A stretch of 10,018 nt of DNA, taken from IMG/VR virus record IMGVR_UViG_2695420596_000012. One strand, given 5' to 3'. The stretch's first letter is position 1; each line of letters begins with the position of its first letter. This document shows positions 1,221 through 7,931 of the stretch, piece after piece. The notes beneath the pieces were generated by a model that saw nothing but the letters and a program-made list of their open reading frames with translations, made no database searches and was not told the DNA's origin. Both the position numbers and the translations under genes were made by a program. This DNA comes from a virus (taxonomy: Duplodnaviria > Heunggongvirae > Uroviricota > Caudoviricetes).

Positions 1221-1250
1221 GAAAACCCGCCTTTAGGCGGGTTTTTTCTT
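1221..1250. terminator. Rho-independent terminator between convergent operons; stronger in the + direction.
   Basis: Stem AACCCGCC (1224-1231), loop TTTA, stem GGCGGGTT (1236-1243), then T-run 1242-1247. On the minus strand the same hairpin is followed by TTTTC. Sits between the + ORF ending 1202 and the minus ORF whose stop is at 1250-1252. Confidence 0.75.
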
Positions 1251-1531
1251 TAGTGATGTTCTTTGCCCTTCTGTTTGCCTGTTCTGACCTGTTCCCACTC
1301 GATACGTCCTTCTTCTCGTCTTTTGTCTATGTATTCCGCAAGATCCTGAATATTGATGCAACGTTTTGCTTTTTGTGATGTGCCGATGCGATATGTTGGA
1401 ACGGGCAACTTACAAGCGTTTGCTTTTGCTTCTGCTGTGGCTGGACTCATACCAAAGTACTTTTGGCTAACTGCTGAGAGTTCAATGTTTGAGGTATTGA
1501 ATTCAGCCATCAGTAAAAACAAGGTGTTCAT
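1250..1531 (-). CDS. Small DNA-binding protein resembling the pyocin-activator PrtN / excisionase-like family; 93 aa from the ATG at 1529-1531.
   Basis: Minus-strand ORF. ATG (MNTLFLLMAEF...) preceded by GGAG with 6-nt spacer; upstream in-frame codons lack a comparable RBS. Segment KLPVPTYRIGTSQKAKRCINIQDLAEYIDKRREE resembles the PrtN-family signature from memory. Confidence 0.5.
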   Translation of the reverse strand: MNTLFLLMAEFNTSNIELSAVSQKYFGMSPATAEAKANACKLPVPTYRIGTSQKAKRCINIQDLAEYIDKRREEGRIEWEQVRTGKQKGKEHH

Positions 1532-1571
1532 AAATTTCTCCATTATCCCGGCTGCACCCGAGGGTAATATA

Positions 1572-2438
1572 TTAATTAATAGCATCTTTGCTCTGAAGTA
1601 CAGCAAATGCCATTAATACCTCTAAAGTATATCGTCTATAAAACTTAACGAATCCAACATAAAAAACATAGACGAAGAAAAAGCTAAGTAGCGTCGAAAT
1701 AGAAATATAAGACACCGCCCCACCTTCTATAGCACGATAAATTAATGTTAGAAATGATATCCAAAATGTAATTACAAATACTAAACAAATATTTCTGCAA
1801 AAACCATATAATGCAACATAGTTTTGAATTTTTGTTTGATGTTGATTAGAAAATTCATAGACGTAATGATAAGCCAATCTGAAAAGATCATCATGAAGAC
1901 CTGTCCTGATGTTTAATAATTTATCGTCTATTCTGAATTTTTTTTCATAACCTTCTTTGATCATTAGCCATGTGGTATTAGCTAATTGAAATGGCAATGA
2001 TTGTGAATAACATAGTTTTTGAGTGGCGTAATCCCATGGTATTATCGGGAATAACATTACTTTGATTATGCAGTATTTTATTTTTCTCTTTGTGTCTTCG
2101 TTCTGTTTGTCACTTGATGGTGTTAAGACGTTTTTTTTGTCATCTGATAACTTATTAAATAGATATTCTGACGGATATTGCAATTCTTCGTTCATATATT
2201 TTTCAATAAAAAATGCGGATGTGATAGATATAAAGTGTCCAGCTATGTAAGATATGATTACTATTGAACCATAGTTCAAAATGCCAAAGATTTGACTTTG
2301 ACCTCTGAGCAATTCAGTTAAGTCAATAACAATATCTAGATCGAATGTCAAACCACAGAAATACATTAATAGGATAAAAAAACCACCTGGTATTAAATAT
2401 CCAAGAAAGTCATAGAATGAGAATGGATTTTGATTCAT
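1572..2438 (-). CDS. AT-rich integral membrane protein of unknown function: two N-terminal and two C-terminal predicted TM helices around a ~130-aa soluble core; 288 aa from ATG.
   Basis: Minus-strand ORF. The track's first codon is TTG; the in-frame ATG at 2436-2438 has GGAG with ~7-nt spacer. Hydrophobic stretches FLGYLIPGGFFILLMYFCGL, IFGILNYGSIVIISYIAGHFISITSAFF, ALYGFCRNICLVFVITFWISFLTLIY, YISISTLLSFFFVYVFYVGFV. Region is visibly far more AT-rich than its flanks. Confidence 0.6.
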   Translation of the reverse strand: MNQNPFSFYDFLGYLIPGGFFILLMYFCGLTFDLDIVIDLTELLRGQSQIFGILNYGSIVIISYIAGHFISITSAFFIEKYMNEELQYPSEYLFNKLSDDKKNVLTPSSDKQNEDTKRKIKYCIIKVMLFPIIPWDYATQKLCYSQSLPFQLANTTWLMIKEGYEKKFRIDDKLLNIRTGLHDDLFRLAYHYVYEFSNQHQTKIQNYVALYGFCRNICLVFVITFWISFLTLIYRAIEGGAVSYISISTLLSFFFVYVFYVGFVKFYRRYTLEVLMAFAVLQSKDAIN

Positions 2439-2546
2439 TGTTGCTCTCCAATAATTTTTCAATTTGTAATATAACCTATATCTATATGTTAATAAATTAC
2501 TTATATGTTCTTTTATGGCAGAGTTTGAATTCGTACGTGCTGATTT

Positions 2547-3071
2547 TTACGACTCAGTTAACTCTTTAAAGCGTTCCATAAACATCCCATAGGCATGGCC
2601 TGGCGACAGTGGAATAACTTTGAACATCTCTGTTGCCGGGATACCTTCCAGTACAGGCCAGAAAGAGCCATCATCAAGCCCGAGATCGCGGCGTTCGGTT
2701 GCCAGCATGATGAGATCGGCATATTTCACAGGCGTGCTCATAACCGTGGGTAACCCGTATTTCTCACGGATTACGGCGTCTATTTTTTCTTCCATCCGTT
2801 TATAGTCAGGAAGAAGACGTTTCAGCGGCGTGGGGATGTCCTGGCAATACGCTTCTGTTGCATCATGCATTAACGCTTCAAAAGCAAATTCCTGCGGCAC
2901 CAGCTGGCTGCAAAGCACCGCATGTTGGGCGACACTGTAGAAGTGTGAAAGATGACCGGCAAAGCGACAGATATTTGAAAGGGAAACCGCGATATCGTTA
3001 ATCACGATGTCGTCTTTATTTATCCTGTCATAATAAAAATGCTTCCCGGAAAAAGTTTTAATAAATGACAT
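2547..3071 (-). CDS. yfdR: HD-domain phosphohydrolase of the YfbR/YfdR 5'-deoxynucleotidase-like family; 174 aa from ATG.
   Basis: Minus-strand ORF. ATG at 3069-3071 preceded by GGAG with 6-nt spacer; the track's longer version starts at GTG. Motifs SVAQHAV and LMHDATEAYCQDIPTPLK resemble the YfbR H...HD...D signature (HDASEV..DLPTPVK). Symbol assigned from length and gene order matching my recollection of K-12 CPS-53 yfdP-yfdQ-yfdR, not from a search. Confidence 0.7.
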   Translation of the reverse strand: MSFIKTFSGKHFYYDRINKDDIVINDIAVSLSNICRFAGHLSHFYSVAQHAVLCSQLVPQEFAFEALMHDATEAYCQDIPTPLKRLLPDYKRMEEKIDAVIREKYGLPTVMSTPVKYADLIMLATERRDLGLDDGSFWPVLEGIPATEMFKVIPLSPGHAYGMFMERFKELTES

Positions 3072-3198: not shown

Positions 3199-4023
3199 TC
3201 AGGCGGTGAAAGTACCAATAAAGGTTTCTACTTTGCTGTCTTTGAATTTCTCAACAAGCAGATCACGAAATTCGTTAGCCATTTCTTCCTGCACCGCCTC
3301 CAGCTGAATAATGCGCAGAACCAGTACAGGACGATCGCCAGTGATAATGCTGAGGCGTAATTTAAATGGACGTTCTTTCAGACCTTCAAACGGAACGCAT
3401 TTAAATTCAAATGCCACTGGCATAATATCTTTGGTTTTCGCTTCGACAGACTCCATCAGGGAGCGTTTGCCGCTGAAGTCATTATCTTCAAAATCAGCGG
3501 TCTGGTTTGCTTCAATCGTGATTTTACGGACAGCCGCAGCCGCTTTTGTTGCCTGAATAGCGTCACCATTAGCATCAAAGCCCACAAGGTAGTCGGCCCA
3601 GTCTTCAATCCATTCTGCCAGTGACTTCTGGGAATGACGCTCGCCATTAACAGACAACAGAGCAGAGAACGGTGCTGTCTTTTTCAGTTTGAGAGTGGCA
3701 GTGTTATCTGCGTGACCTGGCTCATCAATAGTACCCAGGTTAAGCACACTGACGGCACGCATATTATCGGCATCGATAAAGCAGCGGGTGCCTTCATCTG
3801 CAAGATCTTTAGAATAACGAGTAAAGTCATCGATGCTGGCAGTGGAAAGCGCACCACGGAAACGGAAACGATTTAAATTAAATTTTTCCAGATCATGAAT
3901 GCGGAAATTCTCAGGCAATGCCACAGCATCGGCACCAATCTTACTGATAATTTCATTAACACCCTGAGCAGAAATAAGGGCATGGATTTGATTAATTGCG
4001 GTTGCGTCTAAGTTCTGAGACAT
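3199..4023 (-). CDS. yfdQ: YfdQ-like (DUF2303-type) prophage protein, 274 aa.
   Basis: Minus-strand ORF with ATG at 4021-4023 preceded by GAGGA with 6-nt spacer. Length and position between a 120-aa upstream gene and an HD-domain downstream gene match my recollection of K-12 YfdQ. Family assignment is from memory. Confidence 0.65.
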
Positions 4024-4451: not shown

Positions 4452-4499
4452 TTTGCTGCTCCTCATCATATCGACCCTGCAAGGTCGGTTGGTTTCTCC

Positions 4500-4598
4500 A
4501 CAAAACAGAGAAGAACACCTGCGGTGGCAGCCGCCCGGATGGATTGGGTTATGAGCCCGTCGGCCGGTGATGCTCTTCTCTGTTTTGTAAAAAGAGCG
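4500..4598 (-). promoter_or_regulatory. Candidate nut/put-like leader element: boxA-like motif followed by a long stem-loop in the 5' leader of the leftward operon.
   Basis: Minus-strand CGCTCTTTTTA (complement of 4588-4598) directly abuts a 15-bp perfect inverted repeat, ACAAAACAGAGAAGA (4500-4514) and TCTTCTCTGTTTTGT (4574-4588), separated by 59 nt. Lies ~50-150 nt upstream of the YfdP-like start. Confidence 0.3.
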
Positions 4599-5079
4599 GT
4601 ACCAGCCGGAAGCAAGTGTACAAACTGGTACCGCCAAAGCAGTGGCTGTTGTGGTGACCGGTGCTGATCTCCGGCTTGCGGTTATTTCAGACTCTCACGG
4701 GCGTTTAATTGCCCCGCCGAACAGCTCTTTTCCGCAATAGCTGCAATGTCTTTCGCGCATCAGCCTGCGCATTCACCACAACGCTGAGAGCACTTAGCCA
4801 GTTACGGCACCACACTTTGTCGCGGTTCCATAAATGCCCTCATCGTTGCACCCTGGTCTCTTCCCAGGTGTCAAACCGAACCGCCACGCTGGTTAGGCGT
4901 CTTATCAGCATCATCATTGACTTGCACATTCCGGCTACCTGGTTTGTTTGCTCGAGCAAGGAGTGGATTGTCCCCTTTAACGTCCCCAGACCGCTAACGA
5001 CGCATGTGCCATACGCCGTGTTACAACCAAATTTTGTTAGTACCTTGTTTGTTTGTCTGGAAAGAAAGATAAAATGAAG

Positions 5080-5118
5080 TTGCGCATTATGCAAGTGTTT
5101 TTATTGCGAGATATGCAA
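5080..5118. promoter_or_regulatory. Two operator-like palindromes (putative OL) and probable leftward early promoter region.
   Basis: TTGCGCATTATGCAA (5080-5094) and TTGCGAGATATGCAA (5104-5118), both TTGC-N7-GCAA, centres 24 bp apart. A third copy of the same motif lies in the cI-cro intergenic region. Confidence 0.45.
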
Positions 5119-5130
5119 TTTAAAGGGTAA

Positions 5131-5152
5131 TGAAAAGCCACCTTTGGGTGGC
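5131..5152 (-). terminator. Intrinsic terminator just downstream of the repressor gene (minus strand).
   Basis: On the minus strand: stem GCCACC, loop CAAA, stem GGTGGC, then TTTTC (complement of 5133-5152). Begins ~20 nt after the cI stop at 5174. Confidence 0.55.
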
Positions 5153-5173
5153 TAATTGATGAGGAGGTAAGGG

Positions 5174-5866
5174 TTAATTGTGTCGCTTAAGGGTTTGTGA
5201 CTGGCTGATTAAGACCTTTCCAAAGACCATAAACCGGTGTTCATTTTCGCTGGTAATTCCCCATTCACGGTAAATCTGGTTATCAGAAATCACCAGTAGT
5301 TTGTCAGGTATCATTTGCAGTCGTTTGACATAAATTTTATCATCAAAACCAAATACATAGATACCATCTCCATCAAACTGATTGATACTGACATCAACGA
5401 AGATGAGATCTCCTGGCTCAATGGTTGGACACATACTGTCCCCACGAACGTTGATAACTTTAATGTGATTGGCTGGCCGTCCGCCAAACATCGATACAGC
5501 ATTATCAGTTCTGTATTCAATGGCATGAATCACATCAATGACATCACCGCCCTGGATAAGGCCATTTCCCGCACTGGCACTGACATCCAGCATTTCAATA
5601 CGGAATACATCCTTCACCTGCGCAACATCCTCACTAATACTGTTTTTACATACAGTATTACTTTTGACGTCTGAGGTAAAGAGATCAGCAATATCAACAC
5701 CTAAGCTCCTGGCAATATTACTCAGGGCTTGTTCAGTGAATTGTTTCTGCTTACCTGTTTCCAGGCGTGAGATATTCGCCGCATCCACTCCTATTGCTTC
5801 AGCGAGATCGGCGATTTTCATGTTCTTCGCCTGGCGAAGTTGTCTGACTCGGTTTCCTATGTTCAT
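5174..5866 (-). CDS. cI: CI-type prophage repressor: N-terminal HTH (XRE type) plus C-terminal LexA-like S24 autopeptidase; 230 aa.
   Basis: HTH segment MKIADLAEAIGVDAANISRLETGKQ. Ala-Gly cleavage site in SASAGNG. Catalytic-Ser motif VRGDSMCPTIEPGD and Lys in YVKRL. Divergent from the Cro-like gene. ATG at 5864-5866 has almost no SD. Confidence 0.9.
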   Translation of the reverse strand: MNIGNRVRQLRQAKNMKIADLAEAIGVDAANISRLETGKQKQFTEQALSNIARSLGVDIADLFTSDVKSNTVCKNSISEDVAQVKDVFRIEMLDVSASAGNGLIQGGDVIDVIHAIEYRTDNAVSMFGGRPANHIKVINVRGDSMCPTIEPGDLIFVDVSINQFDGDGIYVFGFDDKIYVKRLQMIPDKLLVISDNQIYREWGITSENEHRFMVFGKVLISQSQTLKRHN

Positions 5867-6224: not shown

Positions 6225-6774
6225 TCATCACTGGAAAGTGGAAAAACAGCCTGAGTGGTACGTGAAAGCTGTCAGAAAAACTATCGCGGCGTTGCCGGAG
6301 GGTTACGCTGAAGCTGCTGAGTGGCTGGATGTAACAGAGAACGCATTATTTAACCGCCTTCGTGCCGATGGCGATCAGATTTTCCCGCTGGGATGGGCAA
6401 TGATTTTACAACGTGCTGGTGGCACTCACTTCATTGCTGACGCTGTGGCGCAGTCTGCAAATGGCGTCTTTGTGTCTCTTCCTGACGTCGAGGATGTGGA
6501 CAATGCCGATATTAACCAGCGTTTACTGGAAGTCATTGAACAGATCGGCAGTTATTCAAAACAGATTCGTTCAGCAATCGAAGACGGTGTAGTGGAACCG
6601 CATGAGAAGACAGCAATTAACGACGAACTGTATCTTTCAATTTCGAAGCTCCAGGAGCATGCAGCACTGGTCTACAAAATCTTCTGCGCTCCAGAAAATA
6701 GTAACGCCCGCGAGTGTGCAGCTCCGGGCGTCGTGGCGTCGATTGCTTCTGGTTGTGGAGAAACTAACGCATGA
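6217..6774 (+). CDS. CII-position early regulatory protein (YdaT/CII-like by position), 185 aa, GTG start; function not established from sequence.
   Basis: GTG 6217 preceded by GGAGG (6206-6210) with 6-nt spacer. Overlaps the cro 3' end by 8 nt. Stop overlaps the next ATG (ATGA at 6771-6774). Confidence 0.6.
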   Translation: MGNHHWKVEKQPEWYVKAVRKTIAALPEGYAEAAEWLDVTENALFNRLRADGDQIFPLGWAMILQRAGGTHFIADAVAQSANGVFVSLPDVEDVDNADINQRLLEVIEQIGSYSKQIRSAIEDGVVEPHEKTAINDELYLSISKLQEHAALVYKIFCAPENSNARECAAPGVVASIASGCGETNA

Positions 6775-7099
6775 ATAGTTTAACGGCAAATAACCGTTTG
6801 TCGCAACAGCTGGTGGTCAGCGTCGCTGAACACCTGTTGTTACGGCATGAATGCAGATTACCAAATCACCTGGCTGTAAGTAACCACAGAGAACTTTACC
6901 TGACTGTGGGGGGCGAGTTGTGCAGGAACTTAACCGCTGGTTTCGTGACGGAAGAGGGCTTTATGTCCATGTTATTCGTTGGGAGCCAGAAACACAGCGC
7001 GTTATCTATCTTCGCAAAGACTACCCGCATGAGTGCTTTAGTCCTTTGTGGAAATTCAGGCGTGATTTTGTTGAGTGTGAAGGACCACCAGCATATTGA
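6771..7099 (+). other. Alternative model: ~109-aa product made from frame 0 (6771-6913) joined to the -1 frame (6914-7099) at a G6 tract; frameshifted gene, programmed -1 slip, or homopolymer sequencing error.
   Basis: Heptamer G GGG GGC (6908-6914) is in X XXY YYZ register for frame 0. The -1 frame opens at 6884 and translates to a protein-like sequence (RVVQELNRWFRDGRGLYVHVIRWEPETQRVIYLRKDYPHECFSPLWKFRRDFVECEGPPAY) ending TGA 7097-7099. Confidence 0.3.
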
Positions 7100-7931
7100 T
7101 TCTGCAATTCCGGGACGTTACACTGCTCAGGCACCTTATAAAGCGGGTGCCGGGATTGGCGTCCTGAAATTGTCAACGGCGATGTATGACGCGCCAGCGT
7201 CTTTTTTATCGTCCGCATTTGCTCACATCCAGATTATGGTGGGCTGGGCGGGGGCACCGAAAGGTGCGCCGGTCTCCGTTGACGCCGGTTACGCCAACCC
7301 CGTCCAGTTCACCACCAGTGAAATTGGCGTTTCCGGTGGTGGAAGTTTTTCACTGTCAACGGAGGCTGCCATCATGGCTACGATCCCAGCCCTCACCCAA
7401 CCTGAAATCACCATTGACAACGGCCAGGCCGTTACCACTTCTTTGGCTGTTGCCAACTTCTTCTCCAAGCGTCACGACGATGTGCTGAAAAAGATCCGCA
7501 CTCTGGATTGTTCCCCAGAGTTTTGTGCCCGCAATTTTGCGGAGACATCGATTTCGGTAAATCAACCGAACGGTGGTACACGCAAGCTCCCTTGCTATCA
7601 AATCACACGAGACGGTTTTGCGTTTCTTGCTATGGGTTTCACGGGTAAACGTGCTGCCCGGTTCAAAGAGGCATACATAAATGCCTTTAACCAGATGGAG
7701 AAACAGCTTTCAAAGCCCGCTGTACCGAGCGACGTTGCACATAACGCCAGCGTTCTCTGTTCCTACATTTCATCAATTCATCAGGTCTGGCTGCAGCAGC
7801 TTTATCCTATGTTGGCAAAAGCCGAATCTCCGCTGGCTGTTAGCTTATATGACTATATTAATGATGCTTCGGCGCTGGCCAGTCTCATAAATTTGTCGCT
7901 GAACCCTTCAGAGGTAAGGGGGCGCAAATGA
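6771..7931 (+). CDS. Long ORF (386 aa) whose C-terminal half is a Rha-family phage regulatory (antirepressor-like) domain; N-terminal ~200 codons are of doubtful structure, and the Rha core probably starts at ATG 7374.
   Basis: Residues from AVTTSLAVANFFSKRHDDVLKKIR to YQITRDGFAFLAMGFTGKRAARFKEAYINAFNQME match the Rha-domain signature from memory. Internal ATG 7374 is preceded by GGAGG (7361-7365). ATG 6771 is coupled to the upstream stop. Frame 0 has no stop between 6771 and 7931. Confidence 0.45.
   Translation: MNSLTANNRLSQQLVVSVAEHLLLRHECRLPNHLAVSNHRELYLTVGGELCRNLTAGFVTEEGFMSMLFVGSQKHSALSIFAKTTRMSALVLCGNSGVILLSVKDHQHIDSAIPGRYTAQAPYKAGAGIGVLKLSTAMYDAPASFLSSAFAHIQIMVGWAGAPKGAPVSVDAGYANPVQFTTSEIGVSGGGSFSLSTEAAIMATIPALTQPEITIDNGQAVTTSLAVANFFSKRHDDVLKKIRTLDCSPEFCARNFAETSISVNQPNGGTRKLPCYQITRDGFAFLAMGFTGKRAARFKEAYINAFNQMEKQLSKPAVPSDVAHNASVLCSYISSIHQVWLQQLYPMLAKAESPLAVSLYDYINDASALASLINLSLNPSEVRGRK

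Follow-up and report, generated by a model that had tools for sequence, protein, structure and literature searches.

What is a markedly AT-rich gene for a membrane protein doing between the conserved yfdR gene and the excision module of a lambdoid prophage? The question is raised by a 10,018-nucleotide stretch of viral DNA (IMG/VR record IMGVR_UViG_2695420596_000012; this whole stretch is called the window below), whose minus strand carries a gene for a protein of 288 residues that we refer to as the membrane gene. A preliminary description of the same DNA, made from its letters alone, took the gene to be a foreign moron and guessed that it excludes other phages. We found that the gene forms a mobile single-gene cassette in a variable prophage slot, and that its relatives are recurrently located in prophage cargo and in defence hotspots. 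The product is an inner-membrane protein with both termini predicted to lie in the cytoplasm, and profile comparisons place it in a stand-alone branch of the Csx27 superfamily; it is not itself a Csx27. We regard the gene as a good candidate for a phage-exclusion gene.

A single-gene cassette in a variable prophage slot

The window represents the left arm of a lambdoid prophage. Its first 5 kb are 99.98% identical to Escherichia coli strain E2, where the prophage adjoins a dusA fragment and is integrated at dusA. On the minus strand, genes run as one string from an S24/HTH cI-like repressor (5174-5866) through yfdP, yfdQ (DUF2303), yfdR and the membrane gene to an excisionase-like gene (xis), which starts 40 bp past the membrane-gene stop. 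Beyond the repressor lie rightward genes (cro-like, cII/YmfL-like and Rha/Ash). The preliminary description had placed the membrane gene inside a leftward gene string, and its location downstream of the repressor, on the same strand as yfdP, yfdQ, yfdR and xis, bears this out.

The gene had also been called foreign on account of its composition. Mean G+C content (GC) is 0.295 in positions 1572-2546, compared with 0.482 in the remainder of the window. For the complete insert (1561-2551), GC is 0.296, which is 4.3 standard deviations below the other segments of the same length (z = -4.3; 282 other 991-bp segments, mean 0.485, standard deviation 0.044, minimum 0.407). Sliding-window values are 0.28-0.33 from about 1500 to 2550 and 0.36-0.59 elsewhere, and GC changes sharply at both junctions (0.41 to 0.30 at 1560/1561 and 0.24 to 0.46 at 2551/2552). 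The same edges are given by homology. When the window was compared by BLASTN with three sister prophages that have the same flanks and other cargo in the slot (L005, L006 and L009), similarity stopped at 1560 and restarted at 2552, which are the positions of the GC steps. The insert holds one gene only. G+C at third codon positions is 0.26 in this gene and 0.31-0.54 in ten neighbouring genes; thus, codon choice, beyond amino-acid content, adds to the AT-richness. The claim of a foreign composition is confirmed by these results.

The slot is variable, as had been supposed. DNA of yfdR was found at 3,880 places in 2,971 of the 5,426 complete E. coli genomes, and the membrane gene at 205 places (24 at 95% identity or more, 181 at about 85%), which amounts to roughly 5% of the yfdR slots. 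Elsewhere the slot holds other cargo. K-12 CPS-53 and EC11 have yfdS and yfdT between yfdR and the excisionase, in agreement with the earlier statement that a different gene follows yfdR in K-12. The O157 prophage carries a yfdS-like gene with a methyltransferase and an exonuclease, and the 2014C-3097 prophage carries a run of small open reading frames (ORFs) with Ea22, DUF551 and an exonuclease. The C25 prophage, whose Panacea/PrtN end is as in the window, has yfdS, a hypothetical gene and an exonuclease. One copy of the allele with ~85% identity (NZ_CP148393.1, 13401-14369) is on a 44.6-kb record labelled as a plasmid; a phage-plasmid is one possibility, an excised or mis-assigned prophage another.

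The membrane gene is a genuine coding sequence. It has homologous clusters, a ratio of nonsynonymous to synonymous substitution (dN/dS) of 0.23 between alleles, and an AlphaFold2 (AF2) model with a predicted local distance difference test score (pLDDT) of 90.8. RefSeq annotates the 867-bp version with an ATG start. An in-frame TTG at 2462 is an alternative start that would add 8 residues (296 in total), and MNQNPF is the N-terminus of every homologue compared. The ribosome-binding site that had been claimed for the gene is present (Table 1). In being present or absent between otherwise similar phages, and in its deviant composition, the gene resembles a moron in the sense of Hendrix and Juhala. 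This part of the claim stands. In the strict sense, a moron also has its own promoter and terminator, through which it is expressed from the repressed prophage; a consensus scan found neither a promoter-like site nor a terminator for the gene between yfdR and xis.

The protein and its relationship to Csx27

An exhaustive profile search returned 946 homologous clusters at 50% identity, 487 of them with E <= 1e-10, and nearly all are full-length (about 260-310 residues). With one genome taken per species, relatives were found in Gammaproteobacteria, Bacteroidota, Bacillota, Acidobacteriota, Chloroflexota and others. The label 'hypothetical' is attached to all 534 close homologues, and the full-length match in PHROGs is to phrog_12528, function unknown. 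A literature search did not find the RefSeq accessions in the main text of papers. Megablast against sequenced phages gave no match, and paralogues emerged solely from the protein-level search. The family has no Pfam model, and a Foldseek search of the PDB returned no solved structural relative.

In Pfam and NCBIfam, the window protein matched nothing except SieB (PF14163; residues 53-107, E 0.0013), and this one weak match is what speaks for a SieB-type exclusion protein. It scored 18.8 bits against a gathering cutoff of 26 and was seen in 1 of 110 family members; we take it to be a chance match and have rejected SieB homology. The preliminary description had presented the position as a classical one for superinfection-exclusion or abortive-infection effectors. 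That statement was loose, and the sole direct family hint in its favour is this chance match. The same description had asked whether the protein could be recognised as a holin, a lysis protein or a transporter. None of these was recognised in Pfam, NCBIfam or PHROGs, and we have rejected such an identity as well. Holins are small TM proteins (about 70-150 residues) encoded beside endolysin and spanin genes. The window protein, with 288 residues and a cytoplasmic core of 130, does not resemble them, and neither an endolysin nor a spanin gene is located nearby. A SieB-type protein or a holin therefore appears extremely improbable.

A different relationship emerged from PADLOC, where Csx27 is the only defence-library model matched by the window protein (E 1.8e-5, 23.3 bits; residues 6-257 against profile positions 4-182 of 206). 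This model (PDLC01605) is matched by 83 of the 110 family members, with a best E of 2.2e-10, and tm_4, a second VI-B-associated transmembrane (TM) model, is matched by 25. PADLOC's many other TM-protein models were unmatched by the 110 members, save for a few weak matches to PDC-M48A and PDC-S47. When ten further proteins (two phage paralogues and eight family members) were checked singly, nine matched the Csx27 model. Each match starts at protein residues 5-8 and at profile position 3-4, and six extend to profile positions 179-196. Matches across the family always run from the N-terminal motif as far as TM3 or TM4. Additionally, the independently curated NCBIfam model 'type VI-B CRISPR accessory protein Csx27' is matched by 19 of the 110 members (best E 2e-6); the window protein itself does not match this model (CAS_Csx27, NF040557) at E <= 0.01. 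Because 83 of 110 members match, the matches are anchored, other TM models are unmatched and the NCBIfam model finds part of the same family, we believe that the Csx27 match is no composition artefact. Compared through these two profile models, the family is homologous to Csx27 at the superfamily level, which is not orthology.

In 2019, Makarova et al. reportedly placed Csx27 in a wider family with links to WYL, ubiquitin-like and natural-transformation genes, and are said to have proposed a single-stranded DNA channel for this extended family. Genes for natural transformation, the ubiquitin system and WYL-HTH proteins were absent from the window and from the neighbour families shared by at least two of the 145 immediate neighbours that we annotated. 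Csx27 itself is described, in a passage of PMC7642515 that cites Makarova 2019, as a four-TM accessory protein of type VI-B1 systems. The likeness between the two groups is one of sequence homology over the whole scaffold, with four predicted TM helices in both. However, the window protein has 288 residues, compared with a profile of 206 positions, and about 80 extra residues lie in its core between TM2 and TM3. Neither cas13b nor a CRISPR array or WYL gene is located nearby, and the window family stands alone in prophages and islands of many phyla, Proteobacteria included. We have set the branch apart from Csx27 because of this longer core, the lack of a nearby Cas13b and the absence of the 2019 contexts among the neighbours. 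Within the literature searched, the recognition of these prophage genes as a stand-alone branch of the Csx27 superfamily appears to be unreported.

The only phenotype reported for Csx27 is the repression of Cas13b interference, which it cut up to 10^5-fold, non-cognate Cas13b included (10.1101/092577). By analogy with this repressor, to which the family is homologous, the membrane protein might be a regulator or counter-defence factor that dampens or gates an immune effector of the host or of a prophage at the membrane, either sparing the prophage from self-targeting or shielding the phage. However, Cas13b repression cannot apply in E. coli. Cas13b was found in none of nine large neighbours tested, no Cas protein was found among the 145 immediate neighbours or in the window, and there is no conserved partner to regulate. 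This explanation seems improbable to us.

The preliminary description had proposed a 288-residue protein with two TM helices at each end and a soluble core. Hydropathy, the AF2 model and the charge distribution all agree with it: four TM helices (residues ~12-31, 55-77, 212-236 and 245-264) are laid out as two plus two around a core of about 130 residues (Table 1). The AF2 model was built from an alignment of 110 family sequences and supersedes an earlier, poor run on 14 close sequences (pLDDT 63.8). Charge counts assign a cytoplasmic location to the N-terminus, the core and the C-terminus and a periplasmic one to two short loops; the family mean for the core is 18 Lys plus Arg, compared with 12.6 Asp plus Glu. 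In the alignment of 110 sequences, where mean column identity is 27%, nine positions never vary (F6, Y14, Y64, G67, S74, E79, H191, R215 and K265) and about 30 further positions are at least 90% conserved. The latter include the N-terminal motif NPFSxYDFLGYLIPG, H68, YPS88-90, E195, H200 and K203, the NYVALYG block before TM3 and FxKF...E273 after TM4; N206 is also near-invariant. Among these, E79, H191, YPS88-90, E195, H200, K203 and the NYVALYG block are in the core, which also carries two hypervariable loops (~95-118 and 169-182). Given a cytoplasmic N-terminus, core and C-terminus, the conserved polar residues would all be located at the cytoplasmic face of the membrane. This motif set appears to be unreported in the literature searched.

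Table 1. Features of the cassette, its product and its flanks (window coordinates)
Feature	Position	Strand	Basis or remark
G+C-rich hairpin terminator after xis	1221..1246		Only terminator-like site in the string from yfdR to xis
PrtN-family excisionase-like gene (xis), downstream flank	1250..1531	-	Pfam PyocinActivator 1.9e-22; phrog_1300 excisionase; RefSeq
AT-rich cargo insert, 991 bp	1561..2551		Replaces the yfdS...exonuclease block of sister prophages; homology breakpoints and GC
Membrane gene, coding sequence, 288 residues; inner-membrane protein of an unnamed family distantly related to Csx27	1572..2438	-	ATG start; WP_001075213 in strain E2
TM4, residues ~245-264, followed by the conserved cytoplasmic tail KFYRRYTLEVLMAF (invariant K265)	1647..1706	-	Hydropathy, alignment, AF2, charge
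Periplasmic TM3-TM4 loop, short, residues ~237-244	1707..1730	-	Allele comparison
TM3, residues ~212-236; invariant R215 at the cytoplasmic end	1731..1805	-	Hydropathy, alignment, AF2, charge
Cytoplasmic helical core, residues 78-211, K/R-rich	1806..2207	-	Charge counts, alignment, allele differences
TM2, residues ~55-77; invariant Y64, G67 and S74, near-invariant H68	2208..2276	-	Hydropathy, alignment, AF2, charge
TM1, residues ~12-31	2346..2405	-	Hydropathy, AF2 helix 8-31, charge distribution
Near-invariant N-terminal cytoplasmic motif NPFSxYDFLGYLIPG, codons 4-18	2385..2429	-	110-sequence alignment; anchors every Csx27-profile match
AT-rich spacer, 108 nt, GC 0.26	2439..2546	-	Between the yfdR stop and the membrane-gene start codon
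Shine-Dalgarno GGAG	2446..2449	-	7 nt 5' of the ATG at 2438; read from the sequence
yfdR (HD-domain 5'-deoxynucleotidase), upstream flank	2547..3071	-	Conserved prophage backbone; Pfam, PHROGs, RefSeq

Lambda RexB, Kiwa KwaA, the proven pore Csx28, T4 Imm, P22 SieA and lambda SieB are likewise inner-membrane proteins that are borne by prophages or defence loci and target incoming phage. RexB and KwaA share the number of four TM helices (related systems in Rousset Table S1, PMC9122126). However, none of the six has sequence similarity to the window protein (in PADLOC, only Csx27, tm_4 and PDC candidates were matched), and the window protein lacks a sensor partner such as RexA, KwaB or Cas13b. 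The residues at its cytoplasmic face are also far more conserved than is usual for pore-formers. In its succession of two TM helices, a cytoplasmic helical domain and two TM helices, the protein resembles the stators MotA, PomA, ExbB and ZorA, which filled the top rows of the Foldseek PDB search. Neither significant structural similarity to these proteins nor a MotB, ExbD or ZorB partner was found.

The window copy was compared with the copies of UTI89 and W409. In these alleles, yfdR, the spacer and codons 1-40 are essentially identical (the spacer is 100% identical), and divergence is concentrated in three blocks, codons about 90-130, 160-190 and 220-260, with conserved blocks between them. 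A recombination breakpoint lies inside the gene, between these parts. We considered whether the identity of the spacer between divergent alleles marks a regulatory element, and rejected this because yfdR and codons 1-40 match equally well; spacer identity reflects shared ancestry and is no sign of regulatory constraint. The membrane gene has a synonymous divergence (dS) of 0.60 between alleles, compared with 0.05-0.13 for yfdR and yfdQ. Across the N-terminus, TM1 and TM2, 2 of 66 residues are changed, whereas residues 236 to 243, in the TM3-TM4 loop, all differ between the two E. coli alleles. The variable blocks correspond to the two poorly structured core loops and to the periplasmic TM3-TM4 loop with the adjacent helix ends. 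The protein is a constrained scaffold with hypervariable surface patches. Purifying selection, three hypervariable blocks and a high allele dS are together typical of the evolution of conflict genes.

Homes of the family in other genomes

Four backbones of Enterobacterales have the membrane gene as their final cargo gene ahead of xis and int: the PrtN type of the window, the UTI89 type, a Citrobacter type with a DUF4224-int, and Klebsiella phage P7641. Among 64 full-length IMG/VR loci, 48 encode, across three different integration modules, a homologue of int or xis on the strand of the family gene and no more than 1.5 kb downstream of it. A contig end falls within 2.5 kb downstream in 30 of these loci, compared with 4 upstream. 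The xis-proximal lambdoid slot is a second recurrent home of the family, and within the literature searched it appears to be unreported in this capacity.

The other home is in P2-like phages, where a full-length paralogue is located between portal gene Q and replication gene A. This paralogue (WP_000193205, 280 residues) shows 44% identity over 284 residues (E 4e-66), with the same motifs and the same Csx27 match. The gpQ-gpA interval was identified and validated as a defence hotspot that holds old and tin (Rousset et al. 2022, PMC9122126). System #3 in Table S5B of that study is listed as 'DUF4760; 1 TM in protein 1, 4 TM in protein 2', with 1,102 occurrences (PMC9122126). It is the third most common entry of that table, and the sequence of the paralogue is an exact match to its protein 2. 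We found the P2-type paralogue in 289 of the 5,426 complete E. coli genomes. Both the paralogue and the window protein are prophage cargo in hypervariable E. coli slots. They differ in the phage family and in the slot, which is gpA-gpQ for system #3 and yfdR to xis for the window, and in the pairing of the paralogue with a one-TM DUF4760 protein.

The DUF4760 protein (165 residues) always precedes the P2-type paralogue, as in strain EC958 (L103:3964-4461) and in a second locus (L092:4464-4961). No DUF4760 homologue was found in the window or in the non-P2 loci (by tblastn, and for the window also by Pfam). The protein has no PADLOC match and no homologue in any other locus compared. In ON470623 (L090), the DUF4760 ORF is without annotation and small opposite-strand ORFs are annotated in its place.

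All-against-all clustering of 812 neighbours revealed no conserved partner for the family: the best neighbour cluster was present in 4 of 78 loci. The 145 immediate neighbours are heterogeneous in Pfam and PADLOC and include integrases, type I specificity and methylase subunits, MADS components, AbiEii-like ATPases, ResIII helicases and glycosyltransferases. Models for type I restriction-modification (specificity and methylase) and for MADS (mad3 and mad5) were each matched by 2 of the 145. Four of the nine large neighbours tested proved to be restriction enzymes of type I or type IIG. Distant members are found between integrases or adjoining a transposase. Of 76 loci from many phyla, 75 show a family gene with a lower GC than the flanking DNA (median difference -0.09), with Pseudomonas as the extreme (down to -0.27). 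In several loci of Pseudomonas and Stutzerimonas (L039, L048, L072 and L089; about 3.4-7.9 kb), ORFs of ~440 and ~960-1010 residues precede the family gene, whose AT-richness also far exceeds that of the DNA around it, for example in L039 and L048, with differences of up to 0.27.

These neighbours, together with the conserved residues, bear on the possibility that the membrane protein is a lysogenic-conversion enzyme or transporter, or a binder of a lipid-linked or small molecule, which modifies the host envelope or physiology in a way unrelated to exclusion. The invariant E79, H191, R215 and K265 and the near-invariant H68, E195, H200, K203 and N206 at the cytoplasmic membrane interface could form such a site, and a few glycosyltransferase or sugar-nucleotide genes are neighbours in other phyla (GT2 in 3 loci, WecG in 2, an epimerase in 2). 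However, glycosyltransferases make up a small minority of the neighbours, and variability is itself a feature of polysaccharide loci. No family member matches any Pfam or NCBIfam enzyme or transporter family, no solved structure is similar and no pathway partner is conserved. We consider a conversion enzyme of this kind unlikely.

The window begins, on the plus strand (1-989), with a Panacea-domain gene pair. The first gene (1-573) has a Panacea domain (SocA/PanA-like antitoxin; Pfam 2.2e-19), and the second is a 139-residue ORF (570-989) that overlaps it by 4 bp (RefSeq start 603, hypothetical; phrog_19071, function unknown). Neither gene has a PADLOC match. The pair looks like a PanA-toxin pair at the extreme end of the prophage, by the dusA fragment. 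Small hydrophobic proteins of mobile elements are often toxic, and the antitoxin-like pair at the same prophage end might suggest that the membrane protein is itself an addiction or toxic protein that stabilises the prophage or island. Against this, neither a cognate antitoxin gene nor an antisense RNA was found in the insert, the membrane gene is alone in most loci, and it has been long-lived under purifying selection in hundreds of genomes. An addiction function is highly improbable in our opinion.

Two other regions of the prophage arm deserve description. Rfam models for isrK (7131-7207, 62 bits) and C4 antisense RNA (7232-7319, 81 bits) match the plus strand, inside the Ash-domain part of a 386-residue 'Rha family' ORF (6771-7931). 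This suggests a P1/P7-type antirepressor module under antisense-RNA control, and the 386-residue ORF may be an RNA leader fused to a real Rha gene. Between yfdP and the cI-like repressor, about 720 bp (4452-5173) are without a RefSeq gene and reach a GC of 0.55. The ORFs in this interval (4709-5077 on the plus strand and 4840-5094 on the minus strand) are unsupported, and the region is presumably the pL/operator and antitermination region.

Expression and candidate role in phage exclusion

The preliminary description had noted an AT-rich spacer before the membrane gene that might hold a promoter. The composition of the spacer is as described, whereas no sigma-70 consensus site was found in it (2439-2546), although a consensus scan could miss weak or activator-dependent promoters in AT-rich DNA. 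A spacer promoter with expression in the lysogen is possible, but it is unsupported by this result. The string from yfdR through the membrane gene to xis is uninterrupted by terminator-like sites, the sole one being the hairpin 3' of xis. A 57-residue plus-strand ORF (1029-1202, hypothetical WP_000390069) is convergent with xis and shares this hairpin, which could terminate transcription on both strands. We consider expression in the lysogen no more likely than co-transcription of the membrane gene with xis and the early-left operon.

Such a transcript would be expected if the protein had a role in the phage life cycle. It would then be made together with xis from an early-left (pL-type) transcript on induction and would serve the induced phage, not the resting lysogen, for example by conditioning the inner membrane, by timing lysis or by preventing re-infection or DNA uptake in the induced cell. 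This is consistent with the shared strand of yfdP, yfdQ, yfdR, the membrane gene and xis, with the lack of a terminator between them and of a consensus promoter in the spacer, and with the position directly upstream of xis and int in most enterobacterial loci, which implies a shared transcript. However, the gene is dispensable, as about 95% of related prophages are without it, and it is not near the lysis genes. The P2-like copy is in an accessory hotspot and not in an early or late operon, and outside Enterobacterales most members are not in recognisable phage operons. On balance, we think a life-cycle function rather unlikely.

We believe that the most likely role of the membrane protein is phage exclusion at the inner membrane, and we would give this role an even chance of being correct. 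We favour exclusion because of the occupancy of hotspots, the mobility of the gene, the hypervariable loops and the kinship with a CRISPR-associated membrane protein. Thus, the earlier guess of phage exclusion survives as the best hypothesis, but on another basis, namely hotspot occupancy and the Csx27 relationship, the latter of which had been missed.

Based on these considerations, we propose a model for how the cassette might act. We propose that the cassette is a mobile single-gene accessory unit, placed between the yfdP/yfdQ/yfdR backbone and the excision and integration module, and that, by keeping other phages out at the inner membrane, it would be of advantage to the lysogen or to the induced cell. 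The polar cluster formed by E79, H191, R215 and K265, together with H68, E195, H200, K203 and the NPFSxYDFLGY motif, may sense or bind a ligand or a phage product. The four-TM bundle, probably as an oligomer, would then act in one of two ways. It may block DNA translocation, which would amount to superinfection exclusion. Alternatively, the bundle may open and depolarise the membrane, which would amount to abortive infection. The results above show the cassette and its mobility, the topology, the family membership, the occupancy of hotspots and purifying selection with hypervariable loops, whereas we infer any anti-phage phenotype, the choice between channel opening and a block to DNA entry, the oligomeric state and the timing of expression.

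Several points weigh against exclusion. An experimental phenotype is on record for no family member, and the sole phenotype reported for Csx27, the repression of Cas13b, does not amount to defence. For the window protein itself, the Csx27 score is modest, and no match to the NCBIfam model was obtained at E <= 0.01. 'DUF4760' is absent from the table of evaluated systems of Rousset et al. (PMC9122126), so there is no sign that system #3 has been tested. The proximity of the family to restriction-modification genes and integrases is seen as raw counts without a background rate. A set of His, Glu, Arg, Lys and Tyr residues that is strongly conserved across phyla is less typical of simple pore-formers than of enzymes or of specific ligand sites. 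Finally, the gene showed neither a promoter nor a terminator of its own and may be expressed solely from the early-left operon on induction, and expression restricted to induction would fit a phage-cycle function no worse than a defence of the lysogen.

A broader hypothesis is that the stand-alone Csx27 branch is a new and widespread single-gene exclusion system of the inner membrane, borne as AT-rich cargo in at least two kinds of E. coli prophage hotspot. We put this forward tentatively, as a possibility with somewhat less than an even chance. The gene itself is already known in that it is present in databases, and its paralogue sits unnamed in a published supplementary table. If members had no phage phenotype, an ordinary cargo gene of mosaic prophages would remain.

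The range of phages able to infect clinical lineages of E. coli is shaped by exclusion and defence genes that prophages carry. The P2-type paralogue is present in the ST131 strain EC958, and lambdoid alleles are present in UTI89 and in poultry and extraintestinal pathogenic E. coli strains. The family is large and is called 'hypothetical' by all sources, yet its P2 paralogue belongs to the third most common system in a validated defence hotspot. If our broader hypothesis is true, the lambdoid xis-proximal and P2 gpA-gpQ copies would together place the system in about 9% of complete E. coli genomes.

The relationship to Csx27 gives these genes a second significance. After ten years, the only known phenotype of Csx27 is the repression of Cas13b, and the link described here offers one experimental handle on both the role of Csx27 and the commonest unannotated cargo of the P2 hotspot. 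A relative that works without Cas13b in a tractable host would reveal the biochemical activity of Csx27. If the hypothesis holds, this activity may be that of a gated channel, or of a DNA-translocation or lipid-facing site formed by the E79/H191/R215/K265 cluster, and it would explain the use of the membrane by type VI-B1 CRISPR systems.

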